Shown piece by piece: positions 20,479 to 20,851 of a DNA stretch of 64,000 nucleotides. The position numbers and the translations under genes are program-made. The stretch is from Octopus vulgaris (taxonomy: Eukaryota): positions 65,720,001 to 65,784,000 of the forward strand of contig OX597815.1 in the NCBI GenBank assembly GCA_951406725.2, read 5' to 3'. Numbering within the stretch: the stretch's first letter is position 1; the number at the start of each line of letters is the position of its first letter. Below the pieces are notes generated by a model. It made no database searches. It was not told where the DNA came from and saw nothing but the letters and a program-made list of their open reading frames with translations.

Positions 20479-20851
20479 CACCTCCCGACATTTTTCTCTT
20501 CTATTATATTCTCTTCTATTTCCTTTAAAAGTTTCTCTTAGACGTTATCCATTACAATTTGCCTTGGTCTAACGGCCCTTAATGTTTGTCATCGTCGATT
20601 GTTTACTTTGTACGTCCACTCTGTTGTTGTTCGTTCGTTCGAAGTCCTAACTCTTCATAAATTTTGTATCTTTAAAATTTCTGGATGCTGCTGTCTTATA
20701 AAATTTTCCTATCTTGTTAAAAGCACGAAACAGTGAGTAGTAAAACAATAGATAACTGACGAGCGAGTTATCTTGGTATTTTGTCCTGTACTTTTCTCTC
20801 GTGTTTTTACGTATTTTTCACTCGTTGGTGATGTCCTGTACTTAATGTGTA
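20479..20851 (+). mobile_element. Non-autonomous PLE-type 3' terminus between (TA)n tracts
   Basis: (TA)n on both sides; 3' tail resembles that of the 29283 family; contains rearranged hammerhead segments. Confidence 0.55.
20690..20765 (+). ncRNA. Candidate rearranged (non-circularly permuted) hammerhead
   Basis: GCTGT-C-TTAT ... CAC-GAAA-CAGT ... ATAA-CTGACGA-GCG. Confidence 0.5.

Follow-up and report, generated by a model that had tools for sequence, protein, structure and literature searches.

The window, by which we mean the whole 64,000-nucleotide stretch of DNA analysed here, has the character of animal DNA, with many microsatellites and dispersed repeats. The feature under study lies in one of these repeats, a decayed, non-coding, high-copy element that we refer to as copy A. 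Four further copies, B to E, belong to a second repeat family, and the coordinates of all five, together with those of the segments of the fold modelled in copy A, are collected in Table 1. Both flanks of copies A and B consist of (TA)n, as expected of insertion into such runs, a trait that is not specific to any one kind of element and hence not to the Naiads discussed below. BLAST and repeat comparison found no second copy similar to A in the 64-kb window.

Table 1. Features of copy A, its flanks and its modelled fold, and of copies B to E; positions are those of the window.
Feature	Position	Strand	Remarks
Left flank of copy A, (TA)n run	20453..20479		
Copy A	20480..20845	+	decayed high-copy non-coding repeat, 366 bp
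Helix IV, 5' strand (predicted)	20648..20655	+	with 20763-20770, 7/8 pairs; would clamp the opened core
Hairpin V (predicted)	20656..20683	+	fourth junction arm; 10/11 pairs; probability 0.4-0.6
Helix II, upstream strand (predicted)	20684..20689	+	1/1 plus 4/4 pairs
Peripheral helix, 5' strand (predicted)	20690..20699	+	GUC 20693-20695 lies inside the helix
Helix III, 5' strand, with NUH triplet AUC (20711-20713) (predicted)	20705..20713	+	predicted cut after 20713
Helix I, 5' strand (predicted)	20714..20718	+	3 nt absent behind 20717 in copy A
G block	20722..20737	+	helix II strand 20722-20726, GAAA 20727-20730, helix III 3' strand 20731-20737
Peripheral helix, 3' strand (predicted)	20740..20749	+	from pair counts and majority letters
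C block	20750..20762	+	helix I 3' strand 20750-20755, CUGACGA 20756-20762
Masking hairpin	20750..20773	+	perfect in copy A only
Helix IV, 3' strand (predicted)	20763..20770	+	
U-rich 3' tail of copy A	20773..20844	+	head-to-tail repeated in other copies
Right flank of copy A, (TA)n run	20846..21062		
Copy B	29386..29511	-	same plan as A, unrelated sequence; intact core CUGAAGA, GAAA, GUC 29447-29445
Copy D (B/C family)	30041..30136	+	5'-truncated inside the motif
Copy E (B/C family)	30293..30413	-	5'-truncated inside the motif
Copy C	37404..37543	+	B's family, 72.5% identical to B; core decayed to GAGG

Several other elements share the window. A young canonical Penelope-like element occupies 54630-57099 in an inverted-repeat arrangement whose arms are 100% identical. 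In its terminal repeat there is a hammerhead-like motif of type I that has CCGAAGA and a palindromic helix III, and in which GAAA is preceded by an additional U. Another terminal repeat is present in two copies that are 94% alike (37116-37239 and, on the minus strand, 53206-53328); in the motif that it carries, hammerhead-like and of the minimal type I kind, the core begins with U (UUGAAGA). Next to the copy at 53206-53328, at 53476-54579, lies what remains of a GIY-YIG domain (Pfam E 0.0025). A Mariner-like DNA transposon with 37-bp inverted ends lies at 60303-61594 (transposase domains at 60546-61427), and a broken piece of reverse transcriptase from a LINE-like element at 16189-16521 (Pfam RVT_1, E 6e-6). 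A repeat family of many, often tandem copies was found at 5689-8337, 31059-31488, 37605-38303 and 59886-60097, which we take to be SINE-like.

Copy A represents an abundant family. At a likeness of at least 80%, 1332, 1179 and 1093 public contigs in three runs matched 20481-20845, with a depth that climbs, with dips, toward the 3' end, and the 123-bp core of the family was found in 277 and 187 contigs in runs of two organism labels. Runs that we guess to be RNA yielded 98, 3 and 1 contigs, which are uninformative on expression and on RNA ends. The family gave no match in two metagenome scans and one scan of prokaryote genomes, and 13 viral-contig matches to a 17-letter family motif proved to be unrelated sequence. 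In contigs of all four runs compared, joints in the tail jump back by 70-72 nt. Copy A itself is a single copy, and it is only for this 72-nt tail that a tandem arrangement was seen in other copies. Many contigs, moreover, join the tail to differing upstream sequence, which suggests that several subfamilies have one tail in common.

A first-pass annotation of the letters had placed a hammerhead ribozyme at 20690, with its strands in an order (cut site, GAAA, CUGANGA) said to fit none of types I, II and III. The core letters are as claimed, with GUC at 20693-20695, GAAA at 20727-20730 and CUGACGA at 20756-20762, and so is the order: types I, II and III have the block orders CGS, GSC and SCG and no crossing helices, and copy A reads S-G-C. 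Ordinary type I motifs joined as a dimer, which we considered as another source of this arrangement, cannot yield it. The order is, however, not new, since it has been published as type SGC (Eckert et al., 2023, PMC10085705, in the part accessible to us). Also real is the hairpin that the annotation thought might mask the core, which pairs 20750-20757 with 20766-20773 (8/8 pairs, probability 0.78-0.95). Thus far, a hammerhead with a non-circular strand order and a masking hairpin is partly supported for copy A.

The pairings proposed in that annotation, with cleavage after 20695 and helices built from 20689-20699, fared less well. Within copy A they are present (helix III 6/6 with two G-U pairs, helix I 4/5, all A-U, and helix II 2/3), and an order descriptor with these helix lengths matched only 2 of 40 block-shuffled windows, or 0.05 per window; relieved of the demand for helix II, the same descriptor matched the window twice (20756 and 29400) against 0.125 expected. 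Across the family, however, the majority differs at three letters that these pairings need (20731 C>U, 20734 U>G and 20753 U>C), so that all three affected pairs are weakened or broken. Pair probabilities are only 0.01-0.05 for that helix III and 0.02 for that helix I, against those given above for the masking hairpin. Moreover, with the majority letters the block 20690-20699, which includes the supposed cut site, forms a peripheral helix with 20740-20749, and the true helix II is probably not the proposed one with the C-A mismatch, given that 20686-20689 offers 4/4 pairs to the strand that precedes GAAA. We therefore regard this fold, including the cut after 20695, as very improbable. The annotation had also reported the same order at two other loci; it was indeed found, at 29400 (minus strand) and 37522, at both of which BLAST detected no similarity to 20690. 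The corresponding helix II is absent there, with 0/3 pairs between the strand after A9 and the strand before GAAA, and GAGG replaces GAAA at 37522. As to whether the family keeps the helices, it does not do so in the register first proposed, but it does in a register shifted 18 nt downstream.

In this shifted register the helices are as follows. Helix III (20705-20712 with 20730-20737) has 6/8 pairs in copy A and 8/8 with the majority letters. Helix I has 5/5 pairs in copy A, two of them G-U, and six Watson-Crick pairs once the majority letters and three extra letters are admitted; these letters are absent from copy A and lengthen the helix. The peripheral helix goes from 8/10 pairs to 9/10 with the majority G at 20748. 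Helix II is short in this family and needs a bulge: G20684 would act as G10.1, A20685 would be bulged, and 20686-20689 would pair with 20722-20725. A linker of 3 nt in copy A, and about 4 nt in the majority, leads from helix I to helix II. The triplet AUC at 20711-20713 obeys the NUH rule in the family majority, whereas copy A itself has an A-C mismatch at 16.2-15.2.

From 5' to 3', the chain would thus run through a strand of helix IV, hairpin V, the G10.1-side strand of helix II and a strand of the peripheral helix; it would continue with helix III strand, UH and helix I strand, the short linker, and helix II strand, GAAA and helix III strand; and it would end with the second peripheral strand, the second helix I strand followed by CUGANGA, and the second strand of helix IV. 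The break in the core would fall between A9 and G10.1 and would be bridged by helices IV and V as a four-way junction. On this model, intact copies of the family would adopt a doubly pseudoknotted hammerhead fold of six helices and would likely self-cleave after the base that corresponds to 20713, which we consider reasonably probable.

The majority letters bear on this model. Copy A departs from them at 20731 (U in 60-67% of depth), 20734 (G, 71-87%), 20748 (G, 69-88%), 20750 (C, 74-88%) and 20753 (C, 70-85%), and in one run (X1) also at 20655 (U>C in 85% of depth), where the change turns the last helix IV pair into C-G. All six of these changes at modelled paired positions mend or strengthen pairs, an argument that is partly circular in that helices I and III were derived from the same letters. 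The letters from 20731 to 20753 come from 12-23 contigs per DNA run, biased toward copies that resemble A. In addition, the three extra letters behind 20717 are seen in the loose ends of contigs, 34-44 of them per DNA run.

Variation at the core was read from a table that is complete for variants of at least 4%, with shares pooled over contigs, so that linkage is not readable from them. No variant was listed at U16.1 (20712), at GAAA (20727-20730), or at C3, G5 and A6 (20756, 20758 and 20759) and A9 (20762). Minor variants appeared in one run at U4 (8%) and G8 (6%). H17 (20713) is replaced by A (7-11%) or U (3-6%) but not by G, and N7 (20760) takes all four bases. Thus, the CUGANGA and GAAA strands, both present in copy A, are nearly invariant except at N7, and the variation in the family obeys the rules of the hammerhead, NUH included. 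Position 20711 is G in 22-31% of depth, and its partner 20731 is other than U in 33-40%. The segment 20676-20699 shows no variant of at least 4%.

Copy A itself is a poor representative of this fold. It has lost 3 nt and two pairs of helix III (20708-20734 and 20711-20731), and in its nested ensemble the masking hairpin dominates, while the family helices other than V reach at most 0.04. The majority C at 20750 and at 20753 breaks two pairs of that hairpin. Because of these losses and of its folding into the masking hairpin, copy A is, on the model, probably dead as a ribozyme. Rfam searches of 20481-20845 returned no hammerhead match up to E 10 and two chance matches; for the whole window, only microsatellite-driven microRNA matches were present among the 150 of 185 matches listed. 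Copy A does not qualify as a kink-turn, as its purine bulge is on the other strand (20700-20703) and tandem G-A/A-G pairs are absent.

The same plan recurs in the second repeat family, which has no BLAST similarity to copy A. In copy B, helices IV (7/7), V (7/7), II (6/6), III (5/5) and I (4/4) are fully paired and the peripheral helix has 7/8 pairs; copy C is fully paired throughout (IV 5/5, V 5/5, II 6/6, peripheral 8/8, III 5/5 and I 6/6). Between B and C, the letters of helix II and of the peripheral helix have changed on both strands with pairing kept. Pair probabilities in copy C are 0.9-1.0 for helices IV, V, III and the peripheral helix, except at a single terminal pair in IV and another in V. 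For copy B, nested-fold prediction, in a model that has no pseudoknots, favours other helices. Both copies show the kink-turn sequence pattern, in B within the helix III arm. Copy B is a better bench candidate than copy A.

Could arrangements of this kind arise by chance from short motifs in AT-rich repeat DNA? Every descriptor that we used was composed after these loci were known. A strict six-helix descriptor scored 29/30 for copy B and 30/30 for copy C, and the best of 400 shuffled windows reached 27; it matched 0.08 times per shuffled window (n = 400). Copy A scored 27, in another register, and since four sites in the 400 shuffled windows equal this score, copy A by itself is not beyond chance. 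In support of a chance origin, shuffles match copy A alone at about the 1% level, and loose descriptors match often: two looser six-helix descriptors found 3 matches against 0.49 expected and 2 against 0.33, and are only weakly discriminating. But copies B and C beat all 400 shuffles, the majority letters mend pairs, and the plan recurs in published Naiad ends, as described below. A chance arrangement seems to us hardly credible.

A more conservative account of the conserved letters is a plain type SGC hammerhead. The family cut-site block (20711-20713) would be kept, helix II would form in line, from 20763-20765 with 20724-20726, and helices IV and V would be accessory. This version can draw on the pairs G20763-C20726 and G20765-C20724, and it dispenses with the bulge that the upstream helix II requires. 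However, helix II formed in line has 2/3 pairs in copy A, and its middle pair is mismatched whether 20725 is A or U, the two letters that the family has there. The isolated in-line duplex is also the weaker one (-2.5 versus -4.2 kcal/mol), and 20765 is taken by helix IV (-6.5), in which the same strand pairs 7/8. In B and C the in-line pairs are 0/3, and the closing G-C comes from the upstream strand only. We find the plain type SGC reading quite unlikely; a broken C block is better supported in B and C than in A. The version in which G20763-C20726 forms alone is counted as an isomer of the six-helix model rather than as plain SGC. Indeed, C20726 can pair either upstream with G20684 or in line with G20763, and on the model this swap of partners can give two junction isomers one step apart.

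A self-cutting six-helix hammerhead has also to be weighed against a fold that is conserved and does not cut, being instead a binding or priming signal for a retroelement protein, or one that is active only with the help of a protein. We found no tested precedent in the literature for an opening at A9/G10.1 with two added helices. Minimal Penelope-like hammerheads are weak cutters in vitro (PMC4209133, accessible part), and the PAc element did not need hammerhead cleavage for its insertion in vitro, nor were RNA ends seen at its site (PMC11167929, accessible part). Moreover, neither of the two truncated copies, D and E, begins at the predicted cut, a number too small to judge from. Against a non-cutting fold, the family obeys the NUH rule, its catalytic strands are nearly fixed while N7 is free, and sister Naiads bear clean type CSG hammerheads, a form known to cut (PMC10085705, accessible part). 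A non-cutting fold thus appears unlikely to us, if less so than the accounts considered so far, and self-cutting by the six-helix form remains our preferred reading. Its role would likely be to cut long or tandem transcripts near the 3' end of the element, as proposed for other Penelope-like hammerheads.

Naiads are reported to lack canonical hammerheads and to insert in (TA)n, cephalopod Naiads included, and some of their cores or half cores are reported to fit no descriptor (Craig et al., 2021, PMC8557442, accessible part). In the supplement to that paper, we read by eye the last 450-600 nt of 21 of the 54 Naiad consensus sequences, picked partly by core flags. The six-helix plan, with different stem letters, was found in seven of these 21 ends: clean in Amil, 3_Chem and 2_Movir, and with weak spots in Obim and Ovul (helix IV of about 3 bp), Esco (degenerate helix II) and Bfor (helix I of 2 bp). 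Three others (Smim, 3_Nbra and Hpol) carry type CSG. In the remaining 11, no hammerhead was seen within the displayed 3' part. Three 10-letter core words of the copy A family are absent from the supplement, where line breaks can hide words, and a fourth, of 9 letters, occurs there only in unrelated places. Among the 27 window ORFs scanned, none on the 366-bp copy A was Naiad-like, that is, with an N-terminal GIY-YIG nuclease and a C-terminal reverse transcriptase. Since both the fold and the TA target match, the copy A repeat is probably either a Naiad-like retroelement's 3' end or a non-autonomous derivative of such an element, presumably moved by a Naiad protein.

Two other motifs were seen in the same supplement (PMC8557442, accessible part). 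The ends of Naiad-1_Movir and Naiad-4_Chem have a common structured motif where other Naiads have the hammerhead, and a third motif, GGGUG ... GCUYACUC ... CACCUGA, is found at the 3' ends of Naiad_Sglo, Naiad-1_Chem and Naiad-2_Chem, from an oyster and two hydrozoan families. This third motif could be another self-cleaving RNA. The one common to Naiad-1_Movir and Naiad-4_Chem resembles, we presume, the twister ribozyme.

In the largely open-access literature that we found, taken in the main text for Eckert et al. and for a 2026 preprint on animal retrozymes, neither this wiring nor permuted hammerheads in Naiads are described. The term type-SGC occurs there in one paper only (PMC10085705), and the accessible part of the preprint mentions neither SGC nor pseudoknots. 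Taken together, we think the balance tips slightly in favour of a broader proposal: that Naiads across animal phyla carry a working knotted hammerhead of the C-S-G class, re-permuted through its catalytic core in ctenophore, cnidarian and cephalopod lineages. With an active site built from four separate strands across a four-way junction, it would extend the six-block scheme by a seventh natural permutation that lies outside it, and each genome would contain thousands of copies. Should the cutting prove true, the published assumption that the CUGANGA block is uninterruptible falls, and knotted hammerheads pass from anonymous environmental RNA to animal genomes. It would also account for the seeming absence from Naiads of the ribozyme found in other Penelope-like elements, and mean that genome-wide hammerhead counts have missed a large class; the opened A9/G10.1 step would then be a possible site for engineering switches. 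In that setting, copy A at 20690 adds one further sequence family with the plan, though a damaged one.

The form described here can be set beside four known systems, each known to us from the accessible part of its source. It resembles Naiads (PMC8557442) in its (TA)n target, in the position of the motif near the 3' end and in the six-helix plan seen in seven of 21 ends, and differs from them in that no reading frame is attached to copy A. In canonical Penelope-like elements, the minimal type I hammerheads (Cervera and de la Pena, 2014, PMC4209133) likewise lie in a terminal repeat and tolerate an unpaired base after A9; a viroid hammerhead, too, accommodates one additional base at the A9/G10.1 step (PMC3705267). 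In contrast, the minimal type I hammerheads have the circular order and a weak helix III and act as dimers, whereas here helix III is long and a monomer is predicted. Types SGC and CSG both cleave in vitro (PMC10085705). With type SGC (HRIMA-1 and variants), copy A shares the block order S, G, C and the short linker by which helix I leads into helix II. It also shares an additional helix that connects these two at their far sides, the peripheral helix of our model (8/10 pairs in A, 7/8 in B and 8/8 in C). In type SGC, however, the C block is unbroken and helix II follows A9, whereas here an upstream strand is predicted to supply helix II, with helices IV and V at A9/G10.1. Type CSG (PMC10085705, and the Smim, 3_Nbra and Hpol ends) has the identical cyclic strand order, peripheral helix included, but is opened outside the core, while the present form is opened between A9 and G10.1. 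Possibly, such a form could arise from head-to-tail repeats of a CSG ribozyme, tandems being typical of Penelope-like elements. Because the CSG Naiad ends share the cyclic strand order, the form modelled here amounts to the type CSG/SGC wiring, circularly permuted.
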